Source: Bradymonadia bacterium (GTDB lineage Bacteria; Myxococcota_A; Bradymonadia; UBA7976; UBA1532). Taken from it: a DNA stretch of 64,000 nucleotides. Positions 5,512-37,939 of this stretch are shown in pieces. A program made the translations under genes and the position numbers. How positions within the stretch are numbered: the stretch's first letter is position 1; each line of letters starts with the position of its first letter. Location: assembly GCA_046290225.1 (NCBI GenBank), contig JBKAGE010000052.1, forward strand, positions 11,512-75,511. The letters are read 5' to 3'. The notes below the pieces were generated by a model that saw only the letters and a list, made by a program, of their open reading frames with translations, had not been told where the DNA came from and did no database searches.

Positions 5512-5539
5512 TGCGGGTTTTCCCTACAGCCAACGCATC
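5512..5539 (+). promoter_or_regulatory. Bipartite motif copy 1 (TGCGGGTTT-N13-CGCATC), putative ECF-type promoter
   Basis: Same motif and spacing upstream of six genes in this window. Confidence 0.75.
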
Positions 5540-5595
5540 ACTTGCGAAACCGGGATTCTGATCTCGTCGATTTGATCTCAGCAAGGGAGCGCAGC

Positions 5596-6045
5596 GTGAA
5601 CGGACTCACTCGAACTCTTCAACTCTTCATCTTGATGTGCGCGGCTACGGCATGCAGCGACGATGGTGGTGGCAGCAGCGGCGGAGGCGGTGCAGGTGGG
5701 AGCGCTGGAAGCGGTGGGAGCGCTGGCGGTGAGCCGCCTGCTCCGGAGGATGCGATTCAGGTCACTGGCTCAGGCTTGCGCGGGTGCGATGTGTTGTTCG
5801 CGGAAGGTGAGACTGCAGTGCGCTCGGTGAGCTTTGCCGAGGGCGTCGTGGGCGAATGGATCAAACGCGATGGCGTGGTGGCGCTGTCATTTGTCGGAGC
5901 CAACGGTGCCGAAATGGGCAACGTGGGCGCGATCCGTCTGCAGAGCGGTGACATCGCGGGGGCGGGCGATTTGGAGACCCTCGAGCTCTCGTGTTTTGGT
6001 GAGAACGGCGCTGCTCTGAACGACGCGCAGATCGCGTTCAAATAA
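5596..6045 (+). CDS. Small lipoprotein, Gly/Ser linker plus beta-rich domain
   Basis: GTG after AAGGGAG; hydrophobic stretch ending ATAC; SGGGGAGGSAG linker (track ORF from 5542). Confidence 0.75.
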   Translation: MNGLTRTLQLFILMCAATACSDDGGGSSGGGGAGGSAGSGGSAGGEPPAPEDAIQVTGSGLRGCDVLFAEGETAVRSVSFAEGVVGEWIKRDGVVALSFVGANGAEMGNVGAIRLQSGDIAGAGDLETLELSCFGENGAALNDAQIAFK

Positions 6046-6059
6046 CCCGCATTTCTCGC

Positions 6060-6087
6060 TGCGGGTTTCCCGCCCTTCCATCGCATC
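6060..6087 (+). promoter_or_regulatory. Bipartite motif copy 2
   Basis: TGCGGGTTT-cccgcccttccat-CGCATC, 36 nt before ATG 6124. Confidence 0.75.
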
Positions 6088-6123
6088 TGCTCCTGACACC
6101 CTCTCGAATCAGGAGCCCCCACC

Positions 6124-12051
<5,928 letters not shown>

Positions 12052-12086: not shown

Positions 12087-12608
12087 TCACTCTTCTCCTG
12101 ACAAGTAAGGCGCCCGCCAGTTCTTCCCCTTCTTCCGAGGCTGTTGCATCGCCACTTCGAGATGCTGCGTCAGTTGGGCATGGAAGAGTGCCTGATCTTC
12201 TGCGGCCAAGATGACTGCTTCGACGAACTCAGTCGGAGGGGCATAGTGATGTGCATATATATAGTGAAACACCAAATCAGGAGCAGCAAGTATCAGCCCG
12301 TTTGGATGAAACACCCGAATCTCACCAGACCCCAGGCCTTCTGTGTGGTCACCGTACCGCTCTCTCAGGATCGAAGCAGGGGGTGGCTGGCAGAGATCGC
12401 AGCAATGGAAGCCACGTGTGCGCATGAATCGACTGTAACGTCGATCGTGCAGTGTGGATGTCACCACCCACCAGAGCGCATCCAGGAACTCGACTGAAGG
12501 GGGGCGTGTCGGGCACGGTTTGTGGGCCGAGAGCCATCCGACGTTCTTCGCACCAAGGCCTGTCAAATGGCGTGCGTTGCAATATGGGGTCATGTCCGCG
12601 AAGTACAC
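12087..12608 (-). CDS. Conserved hypothetical protein
   Basis: MYFADMTPY, NVGWL, RGFHCCDLC, GSGEIRV, APDLVFHYI..HHYAPP pattern; visibly lower GC. Confidence 0.75.
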   Translation of the reverse strand: MYFADMTPYCNARHLTGLGAKNVGWLSAHKPCPTRPPSVEFLDALWWVVTSTLHDRRYSRFMRTRGFHCCDLCQPPPASILRERYGDHTEGLGSGEIRVFHPNGLILAAPDLVFHYIYAHHYAPPTEFVEAVILAAEDQALFHAQLTQHLEVAMQQPRKKGKNWRAPYLSGEE

Positions 12609-12678
12609 AGGCCCCTCCTGAGCTTTACCCTTCTATCTCGAGGATGAGTATCCGATCCGCTTGCGAGAAGGGCCACCC

Positions 12679-14154
12679 TCAAGACAAAAAAGGCAGAGCA
12701 GGCCACTCTCCCATCCGCTCCAGCTGCCCCGCAAGCGACAGCAGCCTGTCCTCCCGCCCCATCGGCGCGATGAAGTGTGCCGCCATAGGGAGCCCTTCCT
12801 TCTCAGTGATCGTCGACGGCACCGAGATCGCCGGCATCCCCGTACCATTGGCCACTGGCGTGAAGGGAATGTAACGGTTCAGCTGCAGCGCCACTGATTC
12901 GTTCGACCCTGTAGCGGTGAAGCTGCCTGTGGCCATGGGGGGCTGTCCGAGCACCGTCGTCAGCATCAGATCCCAACGCTCGAAGTAGGCCATCATGTGA
13001 TGGGCCGCCTCGTTCAGGGCGGCGTTGGCCAGCCACAAATCACTGGGAGAGAGCTGAGCGTCCATCTTCTCCAAACGTCGGGTCACTGGCTCGAGGCCCA
13101 CCTTTGGCGCCGACATGGCCAGACGGAACAGGGCAGGGCGCTTGAGCAGCTTCTGGGCTGTCGGTGACAGGTCGGATTTACCGAGGTTGGCCCGAGCGGC
13201 CTTGAAGAACACTCCAGCCCCTGCAGCCCAGAGCACCTGGAATGCCGCGGAGAAGCGATCACTGTCGATGGGGGACTCCACCTCTTCCACGTGGTGGCCC
13301 AGCGCTTCGAGGCGCTTCGCCGTGGCGAGCACCGCCCGCTCGGCTTCGGGGTGCAGAGGCTCACCGCGCAGGTTCTTCACCGTGAAGCCCACCCGCAGAG
13401 GCTCAGGATCTTCACGGCACACCTCTGCATAGGGTCGAGCTGGAGCAGGTTGAACCCAACGGCTCTGGTGCGGCGCGCTCACGCAATCGAGCAGCGTGGC
13501 GGTGTCGCGGACCGTGCGGCTGACGCAGAGGTGGTTCACGAAGCCGTCGGGATCATCGTCCCACGCTGTGGGGTGGCGGCCCCTGCTGGGCTTGAGCCCC
13601 ACGAGGCCACAGCACGCTGCGGGGATCCGGATCGAGCCGCCGCCGTCCACGGCGTGAGCCATGGGCACGATGCCTGCCGCGACTGCGGCAGCGGAGCCTC
13701 CACTCGAGCCGCCAGGGGAGTGCTTCGTGTTCCACGGATTTGCGGTAGACCCATAGGCCCGTGGTTCGCTGAACGGCACGAAGCCCACCTCGCTCATGTT
13801 GGTGCGCCCCAAGGCCACGAGGCCGCTGTCGACAAACCGCTGAGCCACGGGATGGGTGCGCTCGCAGACGTAGCCCTTGAGCAGGGCCGAGCCGAGGGTC
13901 ATGGGGGTGCCTTCGAGCTCGATCTGGTCTTTGAGCAGCCACGGCACACCATGGAACGGCCCCTTGGGCAGGCCGGCGCCGAGGGCCGTGTCCGCGTGGC
14001 GGGCGAGATCGTGAATCACAGCGTTGATCTCGGGGTTGAGCCGCGCGATCTCCCCTCGGGCGAGGTCAGCGAGCTCTTGTGGAGTGACTTCACCCCGAGC
14101 GACCAGCTCGGCGAGGCCCACGGCGTCATATTTGCGGTATTCTTCGGGGGTCAT
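12679..14154 (-). CDS. Amidase signature family protein
   Basis: GVPWLLKD, GRTNMSE, SPGGSSGGSAAAVAAG, DGGGSIRIPA..CGLVGLKPSRGR; start MTPEEY (track 14211). Confidence 0.95.
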   Translation of the reverse strand: MTPEEYRKYDAVGLAELVARGEVTPQELADLARGEIARLNPEINAVIHDLARHADTALGAGLPKGPFHGVPWLLKDQIELEGTPMTLGSALLKGYVCERTHPVAQRFVDSGLVALGRTNMSEVGFVPFSEPRAYGSTANPWNTKHSPGGSSGGSAAAVAAGIVPMAHAVDGGGSIRIPAACCGLVGLKPSRGRHPTAWDDDPDGFVNHLCVSRTVRDTATLLDCVSAPHQSRWVQPAPARPYAEVCREDPEPLRVGFTVKNLRGEPLHPEAERAVLATAKRLEALGHHVEEVESPIDSDRFSAAFQVLWAAGAGVFFKAARANLGKSDLSPTAQKLLKRPALFRLAMSAPKVGLEPVTRRLEKMDAQLSPSDLWLANAALNEAAHHMMAYFERWDLMLTTVLGQPPMATGSFTATGSNESVALQLNRYIPFTPVANGTGMPAISVPSTITEKEGLPMAAHFIAPMGREDRLLSLAGQLERMGEWPALPFLS

Positions 14155-14202
14155 GGCGTTGGCCTCTGGTGCTGGGTTGGCGTGAATCGGTCGCGTCAGG
14201 CG

Positions 14203-15006
14203 ATGCGCCACGATGGCGAGAAACGACGGAGGGGTAAAGTGGGAGAGCGAGATTGGGATGCTGCGGTGCCAGAGATACGGGTGGTGCGTGATCTCTGTAC
14301 CTTCGTCGATGGGTCTGCGCTGAAACCGGACTACCCTGTGGTGATCGAGGCGTCAGGGCTCGCGCGCCTCGATTTGGTGAACGCGGAGGGGGAGAAGCAG
14401 CTGCGGGTGATTGAGTCTGTGGTACGTGAAACCGACGGAGTTGAACGTCTGAGGGGCTGGGTAGGCAAATTTCGGGGAGGTATCCTACGACCTCATGCAA
14501 AAACCCCGATGGGGTGGCATCAACCAGACCAGCAATTGCAGCGGTTCAACTTTGGTAAGGCCACGGCCTATTGCATGAGTGTTGAGCGGTCAGCGCTGCT
14601 CGAAATGTTGGGGCCAGCACACTATGAGGAATACGATTCGCTACGAACTACTGGTGAACCTTGGTTTTATTGGGCTTTTGAAGGCTACGACTCCATGGCT
14701 TGTATGGTCGAGTCAGCTGAAGCACAGCCATACGCCCAGCTCTATTTCAATCCTGGGTGGCCCCCGGAGCCTTCGAGGTGGCTCAAACCTTTAAACCTGC
14801 ACGTCTTCGATTGGGTAGAAATGGAACACGAGGAGCGCCTGTGGGGTCATGGCCAGGCCGGTCGCTTCAATGTCATGCGCCAGGATGACAACGGCCAGAC
14901 CTTCGTCATGCGCACCTGCACCAACGACTATGAAGCCAAACGCTGGGTCGAGGTCTACGAAGCCCGAGGACACAAACAGGATTACTGGGTCGAGTCAGCT
15001 GACTGA
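14203..15006 (+). CDS. Hypothetical protein with C-terminal RQDDNG...RGHKQxYW domain
   Basis: 3' part of track ORF 13291..15006 lying outside the amidase; start uncertain. Confidence 0.6.
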   Translation: MRHDGEKRRRGKVGERDWDAAVPEIRVVRDLCTFVDGSALKPDYPVVIEASGLARLDLVNAEGEKQLRVIESVVRETDGVERLRGWVGKFRGGILRPHAKTPMGWHQPDQQLQRFNFGKATAYCMSVERSALLEMLGPAHYEEYDSLRTTGEPWFYWAFEGYDSMACMVESAEAQPYAQLYFNPGWPPEPSRWLKPLNLHVFDWVEMEHEERLWGHGQAGRFNVMRQDDNGQTFVMRTCTNDYEAKRWVEVYEARGHKQDYWVESAD

Positions 15007-15021
15007 ACGCCACCACAGTCG

Positions 15022-15456
15022 TCAGCTCAGCACCTCGTCAGGGGTGTTGGCGGTGAGGAGACGCTCGAGCGCTTGATCAAGTGTGTCGATGTCAGCGGCA
15101 TCGATGAATGCCTCATGATCTTGGGATATGTCCTGAAATTTGAGTTGCATGTGTCGCTTGAGCGTCTGCCTCGTCTTGTCGAGCAACCCTTGCCTCACCA
15201 TCTCGGAGGCCATCTCGGAGGCCATTTCGGAAGCCATTTCGGAAGCCATTTCGGATGCCATTTCGGATGCCATTTCAGAGGCCATCTCAGAGGCCATCTC
15301 AGAGGCCATCTCAGAGGCCATCTCAGAGGCCATCCCTTGTGCAATCGTCTGAGCCAGCTCTTTGGCCAGAGTGGGCGCCAGCTCGGCGGCTTTCTTGTCA
15401 ACGATGGCTTTGTATTCGTCCGAAAAGGGCTCCGTGAGCTTGATGTTGCGCAACAT
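15022..15456 (-). CDS. Putative internal in-frame small ORF (RpnS-like, 144 aa)
   Basis: AAGGAGG at 15474-15468, 11 nt before in-frame ATG (MLRNIKLTEPFS); same arrangement in paralog 2. Confidence 0.55.
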   Translation of the reverse strand: MLRNIKLTEPFSDEYKAIVDKKAAELAPTLAKELAQTIAQGMASEMASEMASEMASEMASEMASEMASEMASEMASEMASEMASEMVRQGLLDKTRQTLKRHMQLKFQDISQDHEAFIDAADIDTLDQALERLLTANTPDEVLS

Positions 15457-16080
15457 GGCGATGAATGCCTCCTTGGCCACCTGGGAGAGGTGGCGCAGTG
15501 TCAGATCAGTGTAGAGGTTGAAGTCATGTTCGTCGAGTGAGGAGACGAGGGCCACGGCGGGTTCCACCAAGGCCCTGCTGTGCGCACTCTTGCCGTGCAT
15601 CACGATGGACAGCAGAGCCAGCTCTGGCTGTGCGACTGCGGTTCGAGGATCTGTCACGATGGGGAGTTGAGCAGGGCCGAGGACTGCCGGTGTATAGGTG
15701 TTGCCTCCGCCGAGATCGATGGGCGCGCTGGCCCAGCGTGCAACAGATTGGTGTGGGGTTACTACCAGGACTGTTGCCGGGCAGCGTTTCCGAGCGCGGG
15801 CGCTGACGGCATAGTAGGGCCAGCGGTAGCGCTTCTCGGGGTCGATGCGAAGTTGCACCTCGATGACCAGGGCCATTTGTGGGGTCGAGCCCAGTGTCAG
15901 GAGAGCTGCTTCGTCGGCGTCGTAGGCCACAGGGGTCGACTGAGCCAGGTTGATTTTTCCGCTGGTGACGGTGTCGTACGAGGGCAATGGCGGCAGGCCG
16001 GCTGCCTGCCAGAGCTCGATGGCGAGCTCGGGTTTTTGGGTGAACATTTCGACGATGATCTCGTGCAGTGTACTGGGCAC
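15022..16080 (-). CDS. Rpn/YhgA-like PD-(D/E)XK protein, paralog 1
   Basis: HEIIVEMF..P.LA, DAD...VIEVQL..D..KRYRWPYY; C-terminal helical domain ...ADIDTLDQALERLLTA.T..EVL; GTG after GGAGGAG. Confidence 0.75.
   Translation of the reverse strand: MPSTLHEIIVEMFTQKPELAIELWQAAGLPPLPSYDTVTSGKINLAQSTPVAYDADEAALLTLGSTPQMALVIEVQLRIDPEKRYRWPYYAVSARARKRCPATVLVVTPHQSVARWASAPIDLGGGNTYTPAVLGPAQLPIVTDPRTAVAQPELALLSIVMHGKSAHSRALVEPAVALVSSLDEHDFNLYTDLTLRHLSQVAKEAFIAMLRNIKLTEPFSDEYKAIVDKKAAELAPTLAKELAQTIAQGMASEMASEMASEMASEMASEMASEMASEMASEMASEMASEMASEMVRQGLLDKTRQTLKRHMQLKFQDISQDHEAFIDAADIDTLDQALERLLTANTPDEVLS
15199..15333 (-). repeat. 12-bp coding tandem repeat, (MASE)x11 + M
   Basis: Eleven CAT(C/T)TC(G/A)GA(G/A/T)GC units counted on + strand. 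Confidence 0.97.
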
Positions 16081-16161: not shown

Positions 16162-16189
16162 TGCGGGTTTCTCGAGCAACCCGCGCATC
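16162..16189 (+). promoter_or_regulatory. Bipartite motif copy 3
   Basis: TGCGGGTTT-ctcgagcaacccg-CGCATC before GTG 16223. Confidence 0.75.
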
Positions 16190-20781: not shown

Positions 20782-20809
20782 TGCGGGTTTCGCTCAGGCG
20801 CAACGCATC
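20782..20809 (+). promoter_or_regulatory. Bipartite motif copy 4
   Basis: TGCGGGTTT-cgctcaggcgcaa-CGCATC before ATG 20848. Confidence 0.75.
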
Positions 20810-23365: not shown

Positions 23366-23393
23366 TGCGGGTTTCTCCTGACCCCGGCGCATC
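23366..23393 (+). promoter_or_regulatory. Bipartite motif copy 5
   Basis: TGCGGGTTT-ctcctgaccccgg-CGCATC before ATG 23439. Confidence 0.75.
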
Positions 23394-24572: not shown

Positions 24573-25694
24573 TCACCAGCGCCAGACCGCCGCGCCGCCT
24601 TCGGGCGTGATGGTCAAGCTCGGCGGTAGAGCCGGGTCGTCGAAGATGTAGAGCAGCACCCCACCCACCAGCGCCGCAGCGGCGCCTATCCCCAACAACG
24701 TCGTGGCGTCCCGGTACGTGTCCCGGTCATTTCGGAGCGTGCTGTAACGGTTGAACTCGGCGTCGGTGATGCCGCTGCCCAGTCGCGCTTCGAGGTCTTG
24801 TGCTTGGGACTCGGCGTCCAGGGCCTCGGTCCCTGTCCAGATGGCAAAGCCCGCCAGCACAGCCGAGCCACCGAGCAGGCTCCATGACACCACGCGCTGC
24901 GTCGTCACCTCGAGCTCGACGTTCATCTCGGCCTGTTGAGCGGGTTCGAGGGTGAGCTGCTGGGCGTGAGGTGTGCGTCCGCGGGCCTTCACGACGAGCT
25001 GGTGTGGTCCTGGCGTCACCGACAGTGGCCCAGTGAGGGGGGCCTGGCCCACCTCACGGCGATCGATGAGCACCTGGGCGCCGGGGGTGGCGTTGAGCGT
25101 GAGCTTCGCGGGCTCGGGCACAGGGTCGATGACCAGGGCGATCGTGGATCCCTCCACGGCGACCGCTTGCTGGCTGGCGGTCTGGAAGCCCTTGGCGAAG
25201 AGCTTCACGGTGTGGGGCCCGGGATCGACATCGAAGGTGCTGGGTACGGGCTGAGGGAATCCGTCGTCGATCTGGGCGTTGGCCTGGGGCGCCGACGAGG
25301 TGATGATCAGCCGTGTGAACGTGCGAGCGCTCGCAGCTTGCCCTCCTTCACCTTTGGCTTCGAGCAAGGGCACCAGAGTCGAGAGGTGCTGTGTGGCGTG
25401 GCCCTTTCGTGGGCCCTCGGGGGCGATCTCGAGGTAGCGCTGGTAGGCCTCGATGGCCGCCTCGAGGTCCGACACGTCGTTGTCGGAGAAGTACCGGAGC
25501 CGGTAGGCCTGGGCGAGTGAGAAGATCACCACAGGGCGCTCGGAGATGGCCCTCGTGGCCTCGAAGGCGTCGATGGCCACGGTGTAGTTGCCCGCCTGAT
25601 AAGCAGCACTTCCGGCGGTGTAGAGCGTTTTGGCCTGCTCCAATTGAGCGGGGGTAGCGCTGAGGAATGCGATGCACAAGCAGCTCAGGAGCAC
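24573..25694 (-). CDS. TPR + PEGA domain protein
   Basis: AKTLYTAGSAAYQAGNY..A...F TPR-like helices; two PEGA-like repeats (GAQVLID...G.APL...V.PGPH); C-terminal hydrophobic helices. Confidence 0.82.
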   Translation of the reverse strand: MLLSCLCIAFLSATPAQLEQAKTLYTAGSAAYQAGNYTVAIDAFEATRAISERPVVIFSLAQAYRLRYFSDNDVSDLEAAIEAYQRYLEIAPEGPRKGHATQHLSTLVPLLEAKGEGGQAASARTFTRLIITSSAPQANAQIDDGFPQPVPSTFDVDPGPHTVKLFAKGFQTASQQAVAVEGSTIALVIDPVPEPAKLTLNATPGAQVLIDRREVGQAPLTGPLSVTPGPHQLVVKARGRTPHAQQLTLEPAQQAEMNVELEVTTQRVVSWSLLGGSAVLAGFAIWTGTEALDAESQAQDLEARLGSGITDAEFNRYSTLRNDRDTYRDATTLLGIGAAAALVGGVLLYIFDDPALPPSLTITPEGGAAVWRW

Positions 25695-27366: not shown

Positions 27367-27375
27367 GCCCGCCGC

Positions 27376-28503
27376 TCAGTCGTCTCGACGCAGCAATTTA
27401 GACCAGAGGCTGCGTTTCTTGATCGGCACTGGGGTGGCTCGGGCTTGCTGAAGCAGCGCCCAGAGCTCGCCAGCATCTTCCGGTCGCAGCGCAGGGTCGA
27501 CAGAGAGTGCTGCGTCGAAGACCTTCTCGACGGTGGTGGGCAGATCGACACCAAGCGACGCGGGCGTGGGGCGCCGGTTGGGATCGAGGGCCTGGAACAT
27601 CACCGAGCGGGTGGTCTTGCCCTGATAGGGTCGACGGCCTGCGAGCATCTCGACGCACACCAGAGCCAGGGCATAGACATCGGTCCGTGGTCCCGTGGGA
27701 CCATGCTGGCGAGACATCTGCTCAGGCGCTGCGTAGCTCACCGTGAAGGGGGACATGGTGCTCGATGTGGCTTCGAAGCCCTGTGAGTGCAGCGCCGCCA
27801 CTTTGGCCACGCCGAAGTCGAGCAGCTTCACCGAGCGCTCGGAGCCCTCGCCGATGACAAAGAGATTGTCGGGTTTCACATCACGGTGAGCGATGCCCTC
27901 GCGGTGCGCCACTGCCAGCGCTTCTGCCGCCCCTTCGAGGAGCTCGAGTACCTCGCCGAGGCGCCAGTGCTTACGATCGGCCTCGAGCAATTCAGAGAGC
28001 GGTTGACCCTCGAGCCACTCGATCACTGTGTACATGATCTCGTCACCCCGGGGTGTGCTCCAGGTGCTCAGATCGAAGCTCTGCACCACCGAGGTGGTTT
28101 GTCGCGAGAGCTTCGCCAGCAACGCGCCCTCTCGGCGGAAGCTCTCGAGCAAATCGGCACGGACCTCCGGGGTGAGTGGGCGCTTGAAGAGCTTGATGGC
28201 CACCGGCAGGTTCCAGGCGAGGTGCCAGCCTTTGTAGACATGGCTGAAACCACCCTCGGCGATGAACGCGTCCACGCGATAGCGGCCGTCGAGCTCTTGC
28301 CCCACCAATCTCAGCGGATCAGCCTTATCGAGGGTCTCGAAGGGATCCGGCTCTCCCATCTGTGCCAGCAACGCTTCGACCTGAGCGCGGACCTCGGGCT
28401 CGCCGGCGCAGGCCTGGTCAAGGAAGGGCTCCAGCTCACCAGGGACGAGCCCCTGCGCTTCCATGAACACCGCATAGACGCGGTCGTAGAGCGCTTGATC
28501 CAT
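27376..28503 (-). CDS. Ser/Thr kinase of ECF-associated type
   Basis: N-terminal ..F.EA.....E...FL..ACAG...VRA.VE.LL segment; VAIK, HRDVKPDN, DFG, YAAPEQ; 4 nt downstream of the sigma gene. Confidence 0.92.
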   Translation of the reverse strand: MDQALYDRVYAVFMEAQGLVPGELEPFLDQACAGEPEVRAQVEALLAQMGEPDPFETLDKADPLRLVGQELDGRYRVDAFIAEGGFSHVYKGWHLAWNLPVAIKLFKRPLTPEVRADLLESFRREGALLAKLSRQTTSVVQSFDLSTWSTPRGDEIMYTVIEWLEGQPLSELLEADRKHWRLGEVLELLEGAAEALAVAHREGIAHRDVKPDNLFVIGEGSERSVKLLDFGVAKVAALHSQGFEATSSTMSPFTVSYAAPEQMSRQHGPTGPRTDVYALALVCVEMLAGRRPYQGKTTRSVMFQALDPNRRPTPASLGVDLPTTVEKVFDAALSVDPALRPEDAGELWALLQQARATPVPIKKRSLWSKLLRRDD

Positions 28504-28507
28504 GGGA

Positions 28508-29071
28508 TCAGCCCTGGGTCAGCTGATGGCGCAGCCAGGCCTTGGCCATCGTCCACTCAGCCTCGACGGTGCGCTTCGAGACCTCGAGCTCTTCCGCGAC
28601 CTCGGCGACAGAGAGGCCGCCGAAGAAACGCAGGATCACCACCCGGGCCTGCCTGGGGTTCACCTTGGCCAGGCCGTCGATGACATCATTGAGGGCCAGC
28701 ACATCAGGATCATGGCTGATGGAGAGCTGCAGTCCGACGTCGAGAGAGACCTTGGCCACGTCGCCACCCCGCTTCTTGCGAGAGCGGGCTCGGGCGTGGT
28801 CGACGAGCACGCGCCGCATGACGTCGGCGCAGACTGCGAGAAAATGCGTGCGATTCTGCCATTTGGGCATATCGCTGCCGATGAGGCGGACATATGCCTC
28901 GTGTACCAGAGCTGTGGGCTGGAGTGTGTGACCCGCCGATTCACGGCTCATCATGGCCATGGCGCGGTTGCGCAGCTGGTCGTACAGCAAAGGGAGAAGC
29001 TGCTCTTCAGCCTTGCGATCTCCGTCGCGGGCGTGGAGCAGCAGCTGGGTCAACTCGGCGGCATCACTCAT
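28508..29071 (-). CDS. ECF sigma factor, TIGR02999/ECF43-like
   Basis: LLPLLYDQLR..A, HTLQPTALVHEAY.RL, MRRVLVDHARAR...KRGG, LRFFGGLS..E.A..L.VS.RTV..EW..AKAWL. Confidence 0.92.
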   Translation of the reverse strand: MSDAAELTQLLLHARDGDRKAEEQLLPLLYDQLRNRAMAMMSRESAGHTLQPTALVHEAYVRLIGSDMPKWQNRTHFLAVCADVMRRVLVDHARARSRKKRGGDVAKVSLDVGLQLSISHDPDVLALNDVIDGLAKVNPRQARVVILRFFGGLSVAEVAEELEVSKRTVEAEWTMAKAWLRHQLTQG

Positions 29072-29135
29072 GCGGCAGATGATGCCGAAAGGTGCCGTCG
29101 AGATCGAGAAGACTCTATGAACGCCTTGAATACCC

Positions 29136-31646
29136 TCAGAAAGGCGACGGCCGTCTGCACGCCCCCGCGGCGACGTCGCGGGCCTCGCAAGGGCGCTGCA
29201 AATAAATCAGCGCCGAGTCCTCGGCCTTCACCACCAGGTCGTCTACACCATCGAGGTTCAGGTCGGCGGTGTGCAGGCTCTCGATGAGGGTGTTGGTGAC
29301 CGGGAACAGGTCGTCAAAGCCCACTGCGCCACCGACGAAGCGCATCCGCGTGAGCACGCCGCCCTGGCTGGTGAGCAGGCTGGGGCCTTCGTCGCCGAGG
29401 TTCAGAGAGGTGAGACCATCGCTGGCGGGGATGACGAGCTGTCGGGGCTCTGGGGGCAGCAGCGGGCGCTCCGGGTTGAGGGGCCAGATCGACAGAGACC
29501 AGACCTGCTCTACATCTGTGGTGGAGCCGATGGGCCGATAGAGGGTCATCAACTCGCGGGTGCCGTCGAGATCGAAGTCACCCGCCACTGAAGCGGCCGC
29601 CACCTGAGCCTCGGCGAGCCGGCTGAACGCCGAGTCGCATCGCAGCTGGCCGTCGAGGATGCGAAACACTTGGATCTGCGCCTGCGCCGTCATGCCCTGG
29701 CCTGGCTCACGGCGACTGGTGAGTATGATCTCGTCGGTGCCGTCGCCATCGAGATCGATGCGGGTCACAGGTGCCGAAGGGCTGTCGATGAAGGCGTCAC
29801 AGTCGTTGCGCTCGACGGGCGTCTCGCTGAGGGTCTCGCCGTCGAGGTACACGACGTTCGTGGGCAGGTTCTGGTTCGCGACGAGGGTGAAGGCCAGGAC
29901 GCCGGGGTCGAAGTCCGGGAAGTCGTTGGCGAAGAGGGCCTGAATACGGTCCTCGGGGGGGGCCAGGACTCTGGGGAGGCGGCCGGGATCTCCGAGCAAT
30001 GTGTATTGCCGGTTGTCCACGATGATGATCAACTCGTCGGCGATGTCGAGCTGCCCGTTGTCGGTGATGGGGCGTTGGGCGGCGAGGAGAGAGATGGTCT
30101 CTCCGAAGACATCATCGATGTGTCCCACGAAGACACGCTCGTCCGGCAGACCCTCTGCGCTGCCGAACAGGATCTCCACATCGCCGCTCCCCTGCATGAT
30201 CGCCACGTCTGTCCGATGATCTCCGTCGAAATCGCCAGCGATGTAGTTGGCCCCAGCGGGGGCCCGGGGGCTGACCGAGGTGACGAACCCTTCGGGGCCG
30301 CCGAACAAGAACACGATGGAGTCAGGCCGGTTGCCGTAGAAGTCTTCGAAGCCGTCGTTGTTGAGATCTGCGGTGTTGGCGCCCTGGAGTGGCCCTCCGA
30401 GCTGGTAGACCTGCTCGAACGTCAGCGGGTCGCCACCTCGGCTCATCTCGACGTTGCCCGCGCTGAGCACGTCGGCGAAGCCGTCGCCATTGAGATCGCC
30501 CACAGCAGAGGGGTCGAAGTCCCTCAAGGCGCAGTTTTCACACATCATGTCGCGGTTCAATGGCTCGAAGAGCTGCAAGTCATCGAAGCGGCCGTTCCCG
30601 TTATTGAAGGCCACAATGGGCACCGCTGCGTCTCCGGCTCGAGCTGCCGAGGCGATCAGATCGAGATCACCGTCGGCGTCGAGGTCGCCCAGAAAGGTGC
30701 CCGAGCGGGTCAACCTGAGCATCTGGGGCAATTGCAGAGTCTGTCGCACCGTGGCGGTGCACTCACCATCATCTGCAGGACAGTCGAAGGCGAGGACCCA
30801 GATCGAGCCGGTGTTGCTGGCCCCAAAGATCAGCTCGTCGGCCGTCGGGACGTCGTCGGCGGCGGTGCGATCGAGATCACCGACCGCCAGGCGCTCGAGC
30901 TGCCTGTTTCTGAGAGAGAGTTGCTCCTGGATCCCCGAGACATCCAGTGTGCTGGGTCCCACTCGGTTCCACGGTGAGTCAGGGCCGACGAGCATCAGCT
31001 GCTCGGTGAGGGTAAAGGGGGCACGGACCCGGAGCGACTCCGCGATGCGCGGCGTGTCACCCACCATGAGGTCAGACACCACTTTTGGAGTCAGGAGTCG
31101 CTCCCGAGAGCCCTGTAAAATCAGCAGCCCGATCTCGGTGTCCATGAAGACGTCGGCGAGCCCATCACCTGTGGCGTCGCCCACCACGACGTCGGAGAGA
31201 GGCGGCGGGGTCAGGGTGTGCACCGGTGTGGTGATGAAGCCCTGGGGGCTGCCATAGGCCACCTGCACCTCGCCGAGCTCCTGAGCCACAAGATCGATGT
31301 ACGTGTCACCGTCCATGTCTTCGAGGTACAGCGGCCGGCCATCGATGCCCACCAAGGTGGGTGAGTCGAACCGGCCAGAAGGCGCACGGCACACGCCATC
31401 TGAACCACAAGCCCACCCGTCGGGGCATATGGGCTCGCCGTCGATGTCGGTGCACACGAGTTTGCAGGCGGCCTCGCTCCCCGGCGCCCCACAGGCGTAG
31501 GGGCTCCCCTCGGGCAGGCCGTCGCAGTCTTCGTTGGCGCTGGGCTCGACGAGGCCGTTGCCACATCGAAGCCGGTCGACGCCTTCGAGGGTGTCACAGC
31601 CCGTGAAGAGGGGCAGGAGGAGGGGCAGGAGGGGCAGGAGACGCAC
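29136..31646 (-). CDS. FG-GAP/VCBS repeat lipoprotein
   Basis: Lipobox FTGC; CGNG..E...EDCD; many GD(L/F)(N/D)GDG..D repeats. Confidence 0.85.
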   Translation of the reverse strand: MRLLPLLPLLLPLFTGCDTLEGVDRLRCGNGLVEPSANEDCDGLPEGSPYACGAPGSEAACKLVCTDIDGEPICPDGWACGSDGVCRAPSGRFDSPTLVGIDGRPLYLEDMDGDTYIDLVAQELGEVQVAYGSPQGFITTPVHTLTPPPLSDVVVGDATGDGLADVFMDTEIGLLILQGSRERLLTPKVVSDLMVGDTPRIAESLRVRAPFTLTEQLMLVGPDSPWNRVGPSTLDVSGIQEQLSLRNRQLERLAVGDLDRTAADDVPTADELIFGASNTGSIWVLAFDCPADDGECTATVRQTLQLPQMLRLTRSGTFLGDLDADGDLDLIASAARAGDAAVPIVAFNNGNGRFDDLQLFEPLNRDMMCENCALRDFDPSAVGDLNGDGFADVLSAGNVEMSRGGDPLTFEQVYQLGGPLQGANTADLNNDGFEDFYGNRPDSIVFLFGGPEGFVTSVSPRAPAGANYIAGDFDGDHRTDVAIMQGSGDVEILFGSAEGLPDERVFVGHIDDVFGETISLLAAQRPITDNGQLDIADELIIIVDNRQYTLLGDPGRLPRVLAPPEDRIQALFANDFPDFDPGVLAFTLVANQNLPTNVVYLDGETLSETPVERNDCDAFIDSPSAPVTRIDLDGDGTDEIILTSRREPGQGMTAQAQIQVFRILDGQLRCDSAFSRLAEAQVAAASVAGDFDLDGTRELMTLYRPIGSTTDVEQVWSLSIWPLNPERPLLPPEPRQLVIPASDGLTSLNLGDEGPSLLTSQGGVLTRMRFVGGAVGFDDLFPVTNTLIESLHTADLNLDGVDDLVVKAEDSALIYLQRPCEARDVAAGACRRPSPF

Positions 31647-31708
31647 TGGGCACTCCGGGGGTGGGGGTGATGGGCGGGACTATATCAGCTCCAGGCAAGC
31701 GATGAGCA

Positions 31709-34700
31709 TCAGCCGTTGACGTTGTTCGCGCGGGCGCGGCCTTGGGGCGCGGCGCCGGGCTGGGCTGCGGCGCCGCCGCCGTTGTTGCCGTTGTTGCCGC
31801 CGTTGTTGCGGGGCGGCGGCGGGGGGGGCGCCGCGGCGCCGGGACCTGCCGGTGCGTTGCGGCCGGCGGCGTAGTGACGACGGGGCGGCGGAGGCACGCG
31901 GCGGTTGGCGGCGACGTTCCGAGCGGCGCCGGGCTGGGCCACAACCCCACCGTTGGCGGCGCCGGGCTGACCCCGGGGGGGTGCTTGAACCCGGTTACGC
32001 TGGCGGTTCTGCGCGTTGCGAGCCACCTGAGCGCGGCGGCGCAGCTCGGCGATGGTGTTCCGGGCGTCTCTGATCTGCGTGGCGAGGTTGGTCTCCGCCT
32101 GGCTGGGGTTGGCGGCGGCGTTGAGGGTCCGCTGGTACTCAGCGCGCAGCTGGGTCGCCTCTTCGCCCACGGCGCCCATCTGGTCGAGGTTGTTCAGCCC
32201 GTTCTGCGCCGCCTCGGCGTCGAAGGCTCGGGACTGCTGCATGCGGGACAGCTGCCTCACCGACTCGTCGAGGCCAGTCTCGGTCTCGGTGACCGCGTCT
32301 TCGAAGGTCTGGATGTCGCCGTCGTGATCACCGGTCCAGTCCATGTCGTTGATCTCTTGGTCGGTGAGATTGTCGCGGGCGAGCTCTGCAGGCTGACCCC
32401 CCAGCTCGTGTACACCGAGCAGGCCGGTGGGATCTTGGAACTGCACGGGGTTGTTCAGGTTGAACATGTAGGGGTTGCTGGCTTCCATGGGGCGGCTCAT
32501 GGCCACGGCGCCGGGCTCACCCTTGAACAAGGGGTCGGGGCTGGTCCAGCGGCCCAGGGCGGTGTCGGCGTAGCGCATACCCATCTGGGTCAGGCCGGTG
32601 CTGCTGTCGCGCTGGAACCCGTCGACGGCCTTGCGGGCGTCGCTGTTGTCGTCGCCGCTGCGCAGCACGCCGTGGGGGTCGAAGGCGAAGCGATCCACCA
32701 CCTCGCCGGCGGCATCGGTGGTGAGCACAGTGTTCCCCGTGTGATCGTGGTGGGTGAAGATGACGCGGGCTTCGCCTTGCAGGGTCTTCGCCCGGGCGCT
32801 GGCCATGAGCAGGCGGCGGGTGGCCTCGTCGTCGGCGCCGCCGAGGGCGATGGCGTCGCCGGCGTTGAGGGCGTCGTCGGCGGCGGGGTCGCCGAAGATG
32901 GCCGTGGCCAGGGCGTCGGTCTCGTGGGAGGCCACGTGACGGCTGCCCAGGTACACGTGGGTCACGGCCATGCCGTCCTCGATCTCGAAGTGGCGGCTCA
33001 CGGCGTAGCGCAGGTGGGCCCCCTCTTCAGCGATCACGCGGTCGGTCTCGATGGCGTACCAGAACCGGCTCTCGCCCTCGGGGGTTTGCACCGCCTTGAG
33101 GCGGCCGTTGTGATCCCAGGTCAGGCTGTTGTCGCCGCTTTGGGTCATCATGCCCGCGGCGTCGTACTCGAAGGTGCGATCCCCGGCGCTGATGACGGCG
33201 TGGGGCTTGTCGGCGCCGTAGGTGAGGGCGCCGAGGTGGCTGGCGCTCTCGGTGTTGGTCGAGGCGCGCTGCACGAGGTTCTGCCGGTTGTCGTAGCCGT
33301 AGGTGATGGTTTCCTCGAAGGCCTCGCGGGCGGGGTCGAGGGTGGCAGAGGCCAGGCGGTTGAGGGCGTCGTAGGTGTAGAGGGCCCCTTGACCCGCGAG
33401 GCCGTCGACGGGCTGCAGGTCGTCGATGCCGGTGACGTAGCCGAAGCGGTTCCGGGTGTAGCCCAGGTCGAGCAGGGCGCCCTCGGCGCCGGTGACGCGC
33501 TGGCTGTCGAGCAGGTCGGCGGCGTTGTAGCCCATCTCCACGGTGACGCCGTTGCTCAGGCGCATGGTGTCGAGCAGGCTGCTCCGGGTGAAGGTGGCCG
33601 AGTCGACGAAACCCTCGATGGCGGTGACGCGATCGATGCCGTCGCGGGTGAACTCGAGGCGGGTGCCGTCGGGCATCACCATGGCGGTCTCGCGGTCGAG
33701 GTTGCTGAACTCGACGCGCAGCTCGAAGGGCACCCCGTCGATGACGGTGCGGGTGTTCACCAGACGGCCACGGTCGTCATGGGTGAACCAGCGGGCCCCC
33801 TCACCGGCGTGGGTGGGGAACAGGGTGCCCACGCGGTGACCGGAGGCGTTGGGGCACAGGTCGTCGGGGCAGGCGCTGGGCAGGTCGTAGAGGGCCTGCA
33901 CCAGGGTGCCTTCGGGATCGGCGGCGTCCCAGACGCCGGTGAGGCGGCCTCGGGCATCGTAGCTGCGCTCCACGGTGCGGCCTGTGGCGTCGGTCTCCGA
34001 CACCAGCTGGCTGGCCTCGTTGTAGACGAAGGTCTGGGTGCCGCGGTCCACGCTGGCGCTCTCGACGACGCGGCCGAGGCGATCGCGGGTGTAGGTGGTG
34101 CGCTCGCCGGCGGGACTCACCACGGCGGCGAGGCGGCCGCGCACGTCGTACTCAAAGCTGTAGACCAGTGACTCGCCGCCAGAGGTGAGGGTGTACTCCA
34201 CCGACACGTCGCGGCCCAGGCCGTCTTGAACGCGGATGGTGGGGGTGTCGGCGAAGGGGCTCGCGGCGTCGGTGTCCGACACGTCGTGGAAGGCCACCGA
34301 CAGGGGCAGGTACTCGCGGCGACTGAACGAGGCTTCGCCGAAGATCGAGGCGTCGGTGCGCACCACCGAGATCTCACGGCCCAGGGCGTCGAAGGTGGTC
34401 CGGAGCGGGGTGAGCTCCGGGGGGGTGTTGGGGCAGGCGCCGTCGGCGACGGTGTGGGTGCGGTACTTCGCCGTCAGGGCCCCCTGGTTGTTGAAGATGG
34501 CGTAGTCGGAGGCCTCGTACATGCCGCTGGCCACTCGAGCGAGCGAGGCGATCTCGCGGCCCTGGCCATCGAGGCAGCTGACCACCTGGCGATCGGGCAG
34601 GGCGGCCCCCTGCTCGCTGCGGAACTGTTGGGTCAGGGCGCTCACGGGATCACCATATTCGTAGGTGTACTCCACCGTGGGGCGGCCGTCGGGGTCTCCG

Positions 34701-37700
34701 TGGCGGTACCGGGCAGCCACGCGGCCGAGGTTGTCGTAGACCACCTGGCTCCAGGTGGCCTCGGTGACGGCGCTGCCGTCGACGATGGTGATCTCGCTGC
34801 TGGCGCCGGTGACGGTGCCCCAGATGTCGTCGTAGGTGAACTCGCGCATCAGGCTGTAGGGCTGCCCCTCGGGATCGAGCAGCACCTGCTCGCTGGCGGT
34901 GACCAGCAGGCCCTCTTCGTCGAAGCTCTCGCGGATCCGGTAGGCGCCGTTGCCTTCGGTGGCCTGGGGGCCCCAAGTCTCCACCACGTTGCCGTCGCTG
35001 TCGTGGCGGAAGCGGCCGGTGGAGATCCACTCGCCGTCGCTCAGCTGAGAGCGGGCGTGCTTGCGCAGGCCGATGGTGGCCTGGCCCACGGGCAGGCCCG
35101 CGTAGTCGTCGCCGTCGTACAAGAACTCGGTGACCTGGGCCTCGCCCCCAAAAGAGGCAGCACTGTTGCGCTCAGCGGCGGTGGAGACGCGGGCGGGCAG
35201 GTTGAGCAGCCAGTCGTCGCTCGTGGCGTACTCGGTGGTGATGTACATCTCGTCGCCCTCGCAGTTCTCACCGCTCGGGGCGCCGTAGCCCTGGCCCGTC
35301 TTCGCTGGACAGGCGCCGTCGCCGATGCCGATGACGCCGAGCTGGGCGGTCTCGGTGACCTGGCCGTAGCCGTCGTAGCTGTACTCCACCCGGGTCTTCA
35401 CCCACGCGCTGGCGCTCTGGCGCTCCTGCATGGTGTTCTCCCGGGCGACGACGCACATGTAGCGTACGGGCCAGCTGGTGTCCGCGGGTACCTCGTCGAC
35501 GTCACAGTCGTCGTAGGCGAGCTCGGTGGTCATCAAGGGCACGGCCTCGCCGTTGCTGATGGCGTAATCCTCGGTGGCCATGAGGGCCCCGGCGAGGTAG
35601 CGGTTGGTGTCGCCCACGTCGTAGCGCTGCACCCGCATGCCGCCCTCTTGGGCGTCGTCGGCCTCAGTGGTCAAGGAGACCTCGGCGAAGCCCCGGAACT
35701 GCTTCTCCACGGTGTCGTAGAAAGCATCCCGGTAGGTGTAGCTCACCCGCTTGTGCTCGCCGTTGTAGTTGTCATAGGTGTCGATGCTGTCGGCCATGAT
35801 CATGGCGAAGGGCAGGGTGTAGGCCCACTTCTCCTCGCCGGCGGCCTCGGCGGCGGCCATCTGCTGCACGCTGGTGGCGTAGGTGACCTCGGTGACGAGG
35901 CCCAGGCCGTTGGTGATCTCGGTGAGCAGGTTGGGTCGGGTGGGGAACAGCTCGAGGTAGGTCACGTCGCCGTCGGCGGTGACCCAAACCACATCGTCGC
36001 TGCCGCTGCCGTTCATGTCGGCGAAGAGCACCGTGGTGTTGTCGATGCGCTGGGGCAGCGCCTGGCCACCCACACTGTTGATGACCGTGGCGTCGTCGAA
36101 GTGATCGCCGGCGCGGTTGAGGGCGAAGCTGAGCTGATCCGACAGCACGATGACGAGATCGTCGAGGCTGTCGCCGTTGATGTCCTGCAGCTCGACGAAC
36201 TCGATCTGGGCCTCGTTGAAGGGCAAGTCGTTGATGACCCGTTCGCTGGACCACCGACCGTAGCCGAGGTTGAGGCGGTAGGTGAGCTGCCCGGGGGCGA
36301 GGATGACAGGGTCCTGCAGGCCGTCGCCGTTCATGTCGGCCATCTCGAGCCGGCTGTCGGCGAAGCCCGAGCCGATGGCCTCGACGCCGTCGGCGATTGC
36401 GAAGCCGCTCTCGCCCTGGTTTTCGTACACCTGGGTGGTGTCGAAGGTGCTGCTGATGACGTCGATGAGGCGGTCGTTGTTGTAGTCGAGAAACCTGATG
36501 TTCGACAGCTCGGCGTCGCCGCCGGCGAAGTCGTCGCCGAAGTCGGGCAGGCTGGCGGTGCCGCCGAGGCTCTCGACGGTGGACCAGTCACCCTCGCCGA
36601 GGTTGTACAGAATCTCGCCAGTGCGCACGTTGATCATGTCAGCGCGGCCGTCGCCGTTGGCGTCGAGGACCTGCACATAGGCGCTGCTCAGCTGGTGACC
36701 GTTCTGATCGCCAGTGGCGCTCTCGATGGCGGCGCTGAAGCTGTGGCTGTCGGTGGTGTACTGGTTCTTGTAGATGCGGTGGGCGCCAGAGCGCGAGGTG
36801 TCGACGATATCGGGCAGGGCGTCGCCGTCGAGATCGACGAGGGTGGCGGCGCCGGTGCTCAGGCCCACGCCGATGCTGCCCATGTCCACGAGGTAGGGGT
36901 CTTCGCAGCCTACGCCACCGTCGGTGTCGCACTGGGCGCCGAGGGTCTTCGAGTAGCCGAAGTTGTAGCTGACGGGGTGGGGCTCGTCGTTGAGCCCGAA
37001 GCGCTGCAGGCTGGCCAGCCGGGAGAGGCCACCGGAGATGGCCTCGTCCTCGTAACCGAGGTCGTAGCGCCACATGCGGGTCTCTTTGCTGTAGACGTTC
37101 ACCGCGGCGAGGCGCTGGCTGATGAGCTCGTTGGCCCCGCTCCGGGCATCGGACAAGGGGTCGGGGCGATCTTCGTACTCGAAGGTGACCTTCGAGCGGG
37201 CCTCGCCGTTGACGAAGGTGTACTCGATGCTGTCGAGGTAGGGCAGACCGTCCCGCAGCTGGTAGCTGTAGTGGGCCCGGTGATCGAAGCTGTCGACGAT
37301 CTCTACGAGCTGATAACGGAAGGTGGCGCCGTCGCGGCCAGAGACCCGGGCGTTGTCGACGAGATCACCATCGGCGGTGGCGCCGAAGTACATCTTGATG
37401 CCGTCGGGCTGCTCGGCCACCCAGTAGCCCTGGGTGCCGTCCCCGCGATCGATCCACAGGTAGCGCACGAACCCGCCTTCGATGCGGGCCCGATACACAC
37501 CCTCGCCCACGTGCACGAGCTGGTCACCGCCGTTGGCGACGAAGTCATCGTCGGCGGTGTACTTGGGCAGCCCCCACTGGGTCATGCGCTCCATGAAGGG
37601 CACGGACATGTCCCAGCCGATGCCCATGATGCCCGCGGAGCCGCCGCTGTTATAGGCGATGCTCAAGTTGGGGGTGATACCGGGGAAGCCCGCGGGCACG

Positions 37701-37879
37701 TCGATGCCCACGGCGAAGTTCATGGCGCCACGACTGGCGCTGATGCCGGCGTTGTCGCCGATGCCCTCGAGGGAGCCGGGGCCCTCGGGCAAGCTGACGC
37801 GGTCGTCGCTGACGCCGGTCTGGGCCAGCACCGGGGTGCTGCTGATCAGGGTGAAAGCGATGGGGCGTAGCCAGCGCAT
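31709..37879 (-). CDS. SpvB + FG-GAP + TcdB-mid + YD/RHS core protein (TcB-TcC-like fusion) with signal peptide
   Basis: Signal ending VLA-Q; SLPEGPGSLEG, P.LSI.YNS..S.G..GIGW (SpvB); DMNGDG repeats; PNLL..ITNGLG, FRGF (TcdB mid); YD repeats; RY...LGRW.SPDP and NPVQFQDPTGL; ATG 37879 after GGAG (track 37891). Confidence 0.9.
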   Translation of the reverse strand: MRWLRPIAFTLISSTPVLAQTGVSDDRVSLPEGPGSLEGIGDNAGISASRGAMNFAVGIDVPAGFPGITPNLSIAYNSGGSAGIMGIGWDMSVPFMERMTQWGLPKYTADDDFVANGGDQLVHVGEGVYRARIEGGFVRYLWIDRGDGTQGYWVAEQPDGIKMYFGATADGDLVDNARVSGRDGATFRYQLVEIVDSFDHRAHYSYQLRDGLPYLDSIEYTFVNGEARSKVTFEYEDRPDPLSDARSGANELISQRLAAVNVYSKETRMWRYDLGYEDEAISGGLSRLASLQRFGLNDEPHPVSYNFGYSKTLGAQCDTDGGVGCEDPYLVDMGSIGVGLSTGAATLVDLDGDALPDIVDTSRSGAHRIYKNQYTTDSHSFSAAIESATGDQNGHQLSSAYVQVLDANGDGRADMINVRTGEILYNLGEGDWSTVESLGGTASLPDFGDDFAGGDAELSNIRFLDYNNDRLIDVISSTFDTTQVYENQGESGFAIADGVEAIGSGFADSRLEMADMNGDGLQDPVILAPGQLTYRLNLGYGRWSSERVINDLPFNEAQIEFVELQDINGDSLDDLVIVLSDQLSFALNRAGDHFDDATVINSVGGQALPQRIDNTTVLFADMNGSGSDDVVWVTADGDVTYLELFPTRPNLLTEITNGLGLVTEVTYATSVQQMAAAEAAGEEKWAYTLPFAMIMADSIDTYDNYNGEHKRVSYTYRDAFYDTVEKQFRGFAEVSLTTEADDAQEGGMRVQRYDVGDTNRYLAGALMATEDYAISNGEAVPLMTTELAYDDCDVDEVPADTSWPVRYMCVVARENTMQERQSASAWVKTRVEYSYDGYGQVTETAQLGVIGIGDGACPAKTGQGYGAPSGENCEGDEMYITTEYATSDDWLLNLPARVSTAAERNSAASFGGEAQVTEFLYDGDDYAGLPVGQATIGLRKHARSQLSDGEWISTGRFRHDSDGNVVETWGPQATEGNGAYRIRESFDEEGLLVTASEQVLLDPEGQPYSLMREFTYDDIWGTVTGASSEITIVDGSAVTEATWSQVVYDNLGRVAARYRHGDPDGRPTVEYTYEYGDPVSALTQQFRSEQGAALPDRQVVSCLDGQGREIASLARVASGMYEASDYAIFNNQGALTAKYRTHTVADGACPNTPPELTPLRTTFDALGREISVVRTDASIFGEASFSRREYLPLSVAFHDVSDTDAASPFADTPTIRVQDGLGRDVSVEYTLTSGGESLVYSFEYDVRGRLAAVVSPAGERTTYTRDRLGRVVESASVDRGTQTFVYNEASQLVSETDATGRTVERSYDARGRLTGVWDAADPEGTLVQALYDLPSACPDDLCPNASGHRVGTLFPTHAGEGARWFTHDDRGRLVNTRTVIDGVPFELRVEFSNLDRETAMVMPDGTRLEFTRDGIDRVTAIEGFVDSATFTRSSLLDTMRLSNGVTVEMGYNAADLLDSQRVTGAEGALLDLGYTRNRFGYVTGIDDLQPVDGLAGQGALYTYDALNRLASATLDPAREAFEETITYGYDNRQNLVQRASTNTESASHLGALTYGADKPHAVISAGDRTFEYDAAGMMTQSGDNSLTWDHNGRLKAVQTPEGESRFWYAIETDRVIAEEGAHLRYAVSRHFEIEDGMAVTHVYLGSRHVASHETDALATAIFGDPAADDALNAGDAIALGGADDEATRRLLMASARAKTLQGEARVIFTHHDHTGNTVLTTDAAGEVVDRFAFDPHGVLRSGDDNSDARKAVDGFQRDSSTGLTQMGMRYADTALGRWTSPDPLFKGEPGAVAMSRPMEASNPYMFNLNNPVQFQDPTGLLGVHELGGQPAELARDNLTDQEINDMDWTGDHDGDIQTFEDAVTETETGLDESVRQLSRMQQSRAFDAEAAQNGLNNLDQMGAVGEEATQLRAEYQRTLNAAANPSQAETNLATQIRDARNTIAELRRRAQVARNAQNRQRNRVQAPPRGQPGAANGGVVAQPGAARNVAANRRVPPPPRRHYAAGRNAPAGPGAAAPPPPPPRNNGGNNGNNGGGAAAQPGAAPQGRARANNVNG

Positions 37880-37911
37880 GTGCCTCTCCAATTGATGGTC
37901 GATTCACCGCT

Positions 37912-37939
37912 GATGCGCCACGGGTGGGGGATTCCCGCA
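37912..37939 (-). promoter_or_regulatory. Bipartite motif copy 6 (TGCGGGAAT-N13-CGCATC)
   Basis: Minus strand TGCGGGAAT-cccccacccgtgg-CGCATC, 32 nt before ATG 37879. Confidence 0.7.

Follow-up and report, generated by a model that had tools for sequence, protein, structure and literature searches.

A candidate ECF-type promoter motif shared by scattered genes for exported, partly Tc-like proteins in a Bradymonadia genome

Genes and Motif Copies at the Locus

The analyzed window is a stretch of 64,000 nucleotides (G000:C52:11512-75511) from the 8.58-Mb genome of a Bradymonadia bacterium with 64% GC. It contains genes for large exported proteins, a gene module with a sigma factor of the extracytoplasmic function (ECF) type and Ser/Thr kinases, and six copies of the two-part motif TGCGGG(T/A)(T/A)T-N13-CGCATC, the strict pattern (Table 1). 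The initial annotation had proposed that these copies are -35/-10 pairs for an ECF sigma factor and that they unite non-contiguous genes in one regulon. All six were found exactly where it had placed them, and none occurs in 100 dinucleotide shuffles of the window. The 13-nt spacer is exact in 6/6 copies; as had been described, each copy is non-coding, sense-oriented, and ends shortly (32-56 nt) upstream of a start codon. The observation that other genes lack the motif also holds, since no copy lies directly before either ECF gene, the kinase gene STK1, the VWA gene, or the MopE gene.

The genes behind the six sites encode a small lipoprotein, lipoproteins of 1975 and 1003 amino acids (aa), two fibre-like proteins, and a 2056-aa SpvB/TcdB-midN/RHS protein. 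We use "Tc-like" as a working label, because the TcA likeness of the 1975-aa lipoprotein is weak and the reading of the fibre-like proteins as fibres comes from structure look-alikes with a template modeling (TM) score of at most 0.5.

Table 1. Motif sites, sigma-kinase module, and genes for exported proteins in the window
Feature	Position	Strand	Predicted +1	Remark
Site 1	5512-5539	+	5547	Ends 56 nt before start of small lipoprotein gene
149-aa lipoprotein	5596-6045	+		No family; C2 and C50 paralogues also site-bearing
Site 2	6060-6087	+	6095	Ends 36 nt before start codon (1975-aa lipoprotein)
1975-aa lipoprotein	6124-12051	+		Cys-rich N-terminus; C-terminal ~800 aa conserved; large unannotated family
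Site 3	16162-16189	+	16197	Ends 33 nt before start (1003-aa lipoprotein)
1003-aa Cys-rich lipoprotein	16223-19234	+		No family; adjoins 1975-aa homologue in most relatives' loci
Site 4	20782-20809	+	20817	Ends 38 nt before start (fibre-like protein 1)
Secreted fibre-like protein 1, 396 aa	20848-22038	+		Structure look-alikes, TM score at most 0.5
Half-site CGCATT	22121-22126	+		Upstream box absent; precedes fibre-like gene 2
Secreted fibre-like protein 2	22143-23327	+		Start 22143 or 22167; no full site
Site 5	23366-23393	+	23401	Ends 45 nt before start (fibre-like protein 3)
Secreted fibre-like protein 3, 372 aa	23439-24557	+
Secreted TPR/PEGA protein	24573-25694	-		Part of sigma-kinase module; siteless
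Ser/Thr kinase STK1	25861-27366	+		One hydrophobic, probably transmembrane segment; start uncertain; siteless; G014 homologue has site
Soluble Ser/Thr kinase STK2	27376-28503	-		4 nt downstream of sigma gene
ECF43-like sigma factor	28508-29071	-		TIGR02999, PF07638; QPTA with Thr53 in region 2.2; proposed motif reader
FG-GAP lipoprotein	29136-31646	-		Module member; no own site; homologues in G005, G019, L103 preceded by site
2056-aa secreted SpvB/TcdB-midN/RHS protein	31709-37879	-		TcB+TcC-like architecture; heads run RHS, FG-GAP, sigma, STK2
Site 6	37939-37912	-	37904	Ends 32 nt before start (RHS protein)

Specificity of the Motif and its Regulon in the Source Genome

The strict pattern occurs seven times in the whole genome at spacer 13 and is absent at each of 11 other spacers. 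The bare hexamers TGCGGG and CGCATC are unenriched (11 pairs at spacer 13 vs. 0-15 elsewhere); therefore, the signal sits in the W-W-T bases and in the non-coding position. A matrix built from the six sites yields, at a threshold of 20 bits, 12 matches for spacer 13 (11 non-coding) and 0-4 for six other spacers. Mean identity between the six copies is 0.39 in the spacers and 0.30 in the flanks; with spacers and flanks unrelated between copies, the motif is not a repeat.

A widened pattern has 59 matches at spacer 13, of which 22 are non-coding and 14 are followed by a ribosome-binding site and a start codon 23-81 nt on; it was written after the matches had been seen, which makes this genome-wide regulon count partly circular. 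Such promoter-like sites number 0-3 at each of nine other spacers. Their consensus is TGCGGRNWN-N13-CGCATC, and all 14 genes behind them begin with a signal peptide or lipobox, as judged by eye. Eight of the sites are on other contigs, every one before a gene for an exported protein. Five of these eight genes are paralogues of window genes, namely RHS (C71, C2), fibre-like (C2), and small lipoprotein (C2, C50) genes; the other three encode lipoproteins unrelated to these, one of which combines TSP3 with a C-type lectin domain. The genome-wide scan suggested by the initial annotation has recovered both the specificity for spacer 13 and additional members, and the sites before paralogues support its grouping of non-contiguous genes in one predicted regulon, which extends beyond the window and probably consists of uncharacterized exported proteins.

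A full site is missing before the RHS paralogue on C50 and before the middle fibre-like gene (22143). No start is near the other eight non-coding matches, which are unexplained (C37:46057, C37:29791, C41:21848, and five weaker ones), and the match at C47:2067 was scored as coding. The copy at C37:46057-46084 (minus strand) is perfect, with the nearest start, that of a helix-turn-helix regulator-like gene, at least 175 nt away; its product could be a short RNA or a transcript with a long leader.

Three other loci of the genome are related to the window. A second, smaller copy of the system at C2:80582-91860 comprises an RHS gene, two kinases, a sigma factor, a fibre-like gene, and a small lipoprotein, with three sites. 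Four tandem paralogues encoding lipoproteins of ~1700 aa occupy C62:4570-25518; one was scanned and shows TSP3 repeats together with a C-type lectin domain, and it is preceded by a site, which two others that were checked lack. At C50:28236-38605, the fourth, siteless RHS paralogue stands opposite a gene for an 880-aa protein whose N-terminus, by eye, is like that of the fibre-like proteins.

Promoter Geometry

All 14 sites of the source genome face their gene, and the divergent gene pair on C2 has a separate site for each direction. Counting 8 nt on from the last C, 14/14 of these sites have a purine, compared with 2-9/14 at other positions. This base is also a purine in 17/20 sites of related genomes and in 45/50 sites of a Verrucomicrobiota type (both described below). 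In a comparison of the 34 sites of the source genome and its relatives with 18 control matches that are coding or come from genomes without the sigma factor, the purine is found in 31/34 and 13/18, respectively, and a pyrimidine-purine step at the same place in 19/34 and 3/18. The purine alone is a weak argument because 13 of the 18 controls share it; the pyrimidine-purine step separates the sets better. We infer that this base is +1, which would put TGCGG at -35 to -31 and CGCATC at -13 to -8. Fixed spacer, single direction, non-coding location, distance to the start codon, and the +8 purine are consistent with the -35/-10 pair that had been proposed, and most likely the motif is a real ECF-type promoter, an ordinary kind of element.

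The motif also contains the dyad TGCG-N18-CGCA, a 4-bp inverted repeat with fixed spacing as expected for the operator of a dimeric transcription factor. However, the symmetry stops there: bases 5 and 22 are complementary in none of the 14 sites, and matching in the outer flanks is at chance level. The GR-N-WT arm has no mirror image, the +8 purine is on one side only, and an operator does not readily account for sites that always face a gene and are doubled between divergent genes. An operator is therefore very unlikely. Even less probable, to the point of being nearly negligible, are the readings as a short hairpin in RNA or as what is left of a dispersed repeat. The GCG and CGC parts could pair in all three site sets, and the pairing probability exceeds 0.5 in 14/50 sites of the Verrucomicrobiota type; its median, however, is 0.014 for the source genome and 0.0 for the relatives. 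Unrelated spacers and flanks around a spacer of constant length also argue against both the hairpin and the repeat, and Rfam gives no match in the window.

The Neighboring Sigma Factor

The sigma factor encoded at 28508-29071 matches PF07638 (E 9e-60) and TIGR02999 (212 bits vs. a cut-off of 126). In its region 2.2, QPTA replaces the DAED motif, and Thr53 of QPTA is invariant in 10 aligned relatives. An S/T motif in place of DAED is given as the mark of kinase-activated ECF43 sigma factors in the accessible parts of the published accounts (PMC13147305, PMC8999054). The adjacent kinase STK2 has a maximum 19-residue hydropathy of 0.97, and Pfam yields kinase-type families only. Site 6 is followed by a co-oriented run of the RHS, FG-GAP, sigma, and STK2 genes, separated by gaps of 62, 64, and 4 nt. 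A scan of positions 26000-39000 for the Sigma-70 consensus found one promoter-like and four terminator-like sites, a level also reached in shuffles; none of the four terminator-like sites falls in the gaps of the run.

The genome holds only two sigma factors of the TIGR02999 type, each in a site-bearing locus. The second, on C2, is 70% identical to the first, starts 106 nt after a site-bearing fibre-like gene, and has the same kinase order. A second ECF gene of the window (57455) was considered as the source of the reader and rejected because no site is near it.

Motif and Sigma-Kinase Module in Related Genomes

Homologues of the 1975-aa lipoprotein were found in 17 of 61 genomes searched, the source genome counted. 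Among 20 loci around these homologues, strong sites occur only in the G013 locus, where the same sigma-kinase module is adjacent. A variant, TGCGGRNTY-N13-CGCGTS, lies inside the modules of G005, G014, G019 (twice), G021, and L103, which have no Tc-like neighbors; these are modules of the sigma-kinase-PEGA-FG-GAP arrangement. A matching site is also present in the module of L276, a locus fetched later and held out. When the six-site matrix was applied without tuning, 4/5 modules had their best score at spacer 13. Genome-wide, the pattern has 18 matches in the five module genomes, 17 of them non-coding; the loci used to train the coding model had 73% GC, and its calls in lower-GC genomes are less certain. 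The 12 matches that had not been seen before the pattern was written are all non-coding; a start was called behind nine of them, and RHS homologues in G005 and G013 are among these genes. The same genomes have 14 matches at spacers 12 and 14, three of them non-coding. Five genomes with other or fragmentary TIGR02999 copies have 12 matches, six non-coding, and an orthologous site in G026 is one of the six. An earlier pattern restricted to CGCATC was discarded: its 31 matches in 34 relatives, vs. 7 for a reversed control, were mostly coding or unrelated, and it misses the CGCGTS variant.

The Tc-like genes behave differently from the module. Among 53 Tc-like gene calls in 19 loci (a count that omits L040), strict sites precede 3/18 (G005, G013, G021) and 0/35 elsewhere. 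In relatives, then, the candidate promoter appears to go with the sigma-kinase module and not with the Tc-like genes. Where Tc-like genes were recovered together in relatives, they mostly form compact operons; in the source genome they are separated by insertions, and each piece has its own site. A search of 113 genomes of the class gave no further carriers outside the family. In the window, a DUF7919 gene, an amidase gene, and a VWA-like lipoprotein gene on the opposite strand (12087-15006 and 19236-20576) lie between genes that are compactly arrayed in relatives' operons. The genes at 15022-16080 and 38023-38901 (both minus strand) are paralogues of each other, one with tandem ASEM repeats, and have about 10 more relatives in the genome; one of the two interrupts the Tc-like genes. 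Presumably they are Rpn/YhgA transposase-like genes, although Pfam gives no match.

Related Sigma Factors in Another Phylum

A further set of related sigma factors comprised 80 loci, 77 of them with enough upstream DNA. When 93 sigma loci were first scanned, the six-site matrix gave no clear enrichment; enrichment near the sigma start emerged only with a 28-site matrix. In the 77 loci, 39 sigma factors share one loop type and are mostly titled Verrucomicrobiota. A box of the form GGCGGGTTY-N13-CGC(T/A)T lies ~100 nt upstream, on the opposite strand, in 38 of these 39 loci; it is absent at six other spacers and from all 38 other sigma loci. The boxes precede genes for varied, mostly secreted proteins and are retained where flank identity is down to 26-44%. 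A metagenome set was held out, with 67 of its 80 loci usable; there the box stands at 14/21 sigma factors with Arg in the region-4 helix and at 0/33 without it. All 14 have the same loop type, and one of 13 unparsed sigma factors also has a box (L293, TGCGGATTC-N13-CGCGTT). In L105-L174 and in metagenome loci such as L286 and L290, the combination of a conserved sigma gene, a divergent box, and a widely varying gene behind it resembles a slot for exchangeable cargo.

In the downstream box, base 4 (position -10 in the register proposed above) appears to change with the sigma subclade. The source genome and G013 have A at this place, the module sites of G005, G014, G019, G021, and L103 have G, and the Verrucomicrobiota type has mostly T. 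The sigma factors of the source genome and G013 cluster (97/88) and have a common region-2.3 loop type; G013 and G021 belong to the same genus, yet the base differs (A in G013 vs. G inside the G021 module). Exceptions are A-type sites outside the modules of G005, G014, and G021, and L351. Loop L3 has been reported to read the -10 base (PMC8103513), and a few residues to determine ECF specificity (PMC7776599), in the parts of these papers available to us.

Assignment of the Motif to the Sigma Factor

Taken together, these comparisons make it probable that the reader is the TIGR02999/ECF43-like sigma factor at 28508-29071, its paralogue on C2, or both. An alternative is that the motif is an ECF promoter read by another of the ~50 sigma70-family proteins and that the TIGR02999 gene is a mere neighbor or target. 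The 51 sigma70-family matches in the genome do offer many candidates. Among them, however, a TGCGG box lies within 3 kb only at the C2 paralogue. Six other genomes or contigs have the motif within the sigma module, and in another phylum it stands beside related sigma factors; these occurrences, and a -10 base that tracks the sigma subclade, also argue against another reader, which we consider unlikely.

Besides the purine shared by control sites, several results count against the assignment to the TIGR02999 sigma factor, and some of them favor the alternative. No site lies directly upstream of the window sigma gene or its C2 paralogue; autoregulation would therefore go by read-through, and co-transcription across 8.8 kb is suggested by the 62- and 64-nt gaps. 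The predicted ECF43 target is GTC (-35) and CAG (-10) according to the portion of the ECF43 supplement available (PMC7826278), and the motif described here differs from it; because this target is not matched, we call the sigma factor ECF43-like and not ECF43. Five genomes without a TIGR02999 sigma factor have 12 matches, eight coding and four non-coding; these few non-coding matches also favor another reader. G026 keeps an orthologous site, and no sigma factor of the clade was found in its 75%-complete assembly. The untuned matrix reaches only 8.3 bits in G019 and G021, and spacer 15 scores higher in G021. In raw counts, the 18 matches in relatives compare with 8 and 6 at other spacers and with 2-12 for reversed patterns, a modest excess. 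Most Tc-like loci of sigma-bearing relatives are siteless. The Verrucomicrobiota-type loci are close kin and amount to about one independent event. Finally, the site-bearing sigma factors do not form one supported clade, and the tree requires four changes for them.

Exported Products

The RHS protein has SpvB, TcdB-midN, RHS-repeat, and RHS-core domains. The tail after the core (~240 aa) is partly low-complexity, has no family match, and is variable among homologues. The 1975-aa lipoprotein belongs to a large family (511 proteins among 7999 scored; 330 clusters at E <=1e-30), a Tc-like exported family to which the motif points and whose description was not found in the literature searched. It has no sequence match in Pfam, TcA_TcB_BD included, or in the Protein Data Bank (PDB), and PF18276 has no match in the source genome. 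A profile comparison aligned 29 columns at the very end of TcA_TcB_BD (E 0.005-0.009; reversed controls 0.04-0.45). A language-model comparison gave TcA as a look-alike (0.89), a lead only; PDB profile matches are coiled-coil only. A single-sequence structure model of the protein was unusable (mean pLDDT, predicted local distance difference test, 37.8). The 1003-aa protein, used as the query of a metagenome search, had no relative there.

Comparison with Known Systems and a Possible Mechanism

ECF regulons marked by repeated promoters are ordinary, and several features of the system have precedents. The following comparisons with ECF43 use the accessible parts of the published accounts. In ECF43 systems such as Vibrio EcfP-PknT and Xanthomonas EcfK-PknS, the Sigma70_ECF domain is the same, with the consensus QTTA where the present sigma factor has QPTA. 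A kinase gene (here STK2) is directly downstream, no anti-sigma factor is seen, and EcfK likewise controls a secretion weapon, the type VI secretion system (PMC13147305, PMC8999054). In contrast, the kinase at position +1 has a transmembrane helix and an outer TPR part in 87.8% of ECF43 members; STK2 is soluble, and the membrane kinase and the TPR/PEGA protein are encoded by separate genes. The putative targets are Tc-like and fibre-like exported proteins. DdvS of Myxococcus xanthus, in the part of the report available, has several promoters in its own locus, each at most ~50 bp from the start codon, and GTAA-n16-CGT has the same geometry as CGGR-n16-CGC here (PMC6061681). The bases differ, and DdvS is held by an anti-sigma factor and controls CRISPR-Cas, whereas kinases neighbor the sigma gene here.

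Tc (ABC) toxins share with the present system the SpvB, TcdB-midN, and RHS domains, an RHS core with a variable C-terminal tail, and a neighboring gene for a ~2000-aa partner. In contrast to them, every part here has, as judged by eye, a signal peptide or lipobox; for a Yersinia Tc toxin, release by lysis is reported. The large partner has no TcA_TcB_BD match, no toxin domain was identified, and there are additional lipoprotein and fibre-like genes. The literature searched on ECF43, EcfK, and EcfP promoters, as far as the texts were accessible, does not describe the motif, nor was the target promoter of this sigma branch found there; the portion of the ECF43 supplement examined contains neither GCGGG nor CGCAT. 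Accessible literature on Tc-like systems in Myxococcota does not describe the system: the main text of a Tc survey (PMC7861908) has no word beginning with "Myxo," and PMC13018210, in its accessible part, treats a different, teneurin-like family.

If EcfP and EcfK are a guide, the sigma factor would stay inactive until a neighboring Ser/Thr kinase phosphorylates it, with Thr53 of QPTA as the candidate residue. The active form would transcribe the scattered target genes, those encoding the RHS protein, both large lipoproteins, the small lipoprotein, and the fibre-like proteins. Its own gene could be read through from site 6 and, in the second copy, from the fibre site on C2, giving positive feedback, and fibre-like gene 2 is probably read through from site 4. 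The FG-GAP and kinase genes of the module appear to be older targets, with the Tc-like genes perhaps pulled into the regulon in the source genome and G013. Most likely, one switch would turn on a group of exported proteins with a partial likeness to Tc toxin subunits. A fuller scenario is possible but doubtful. In this scenario, a phospho-switched sigma factor, with a recognition sequence common to Myxococcota and Verrucomicrobiota and a -10 base varying with the loop, would activate a Tc-like delivery machine that is exported by Sec, anchored by lipoproteins, and equipped with fibre-like proteins for targeting. Such a machine would serve Myxococcota as a weapon tethered to the surface and triggered by contact, in contrast to Tc toxins released by lysis, and its ancestral operon would have split into separately promoted genes in this lineage.

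Kinase-activated ECF sigma factors are common in genomes of Myxococcota, Verrucomicrobiota, and Acidobacteriota, and a defined motif would make their regulons predictable and testable. The A/G/T variation at the predicted -10 base offers a natural test of the loop-3 specificity rule. At the locus itself, the motif would join scattered unannotated genes into one functional unit.

Other genes of the window are unrelated to the motif. These are a multiheme cytochrome lipoprotein gene (40101-42065, minus strand), three pentapeptide-repeat genes (39011-40081, 54930-55676, and 58463-59455), and a nuclease-helicase gene (59590-63396).

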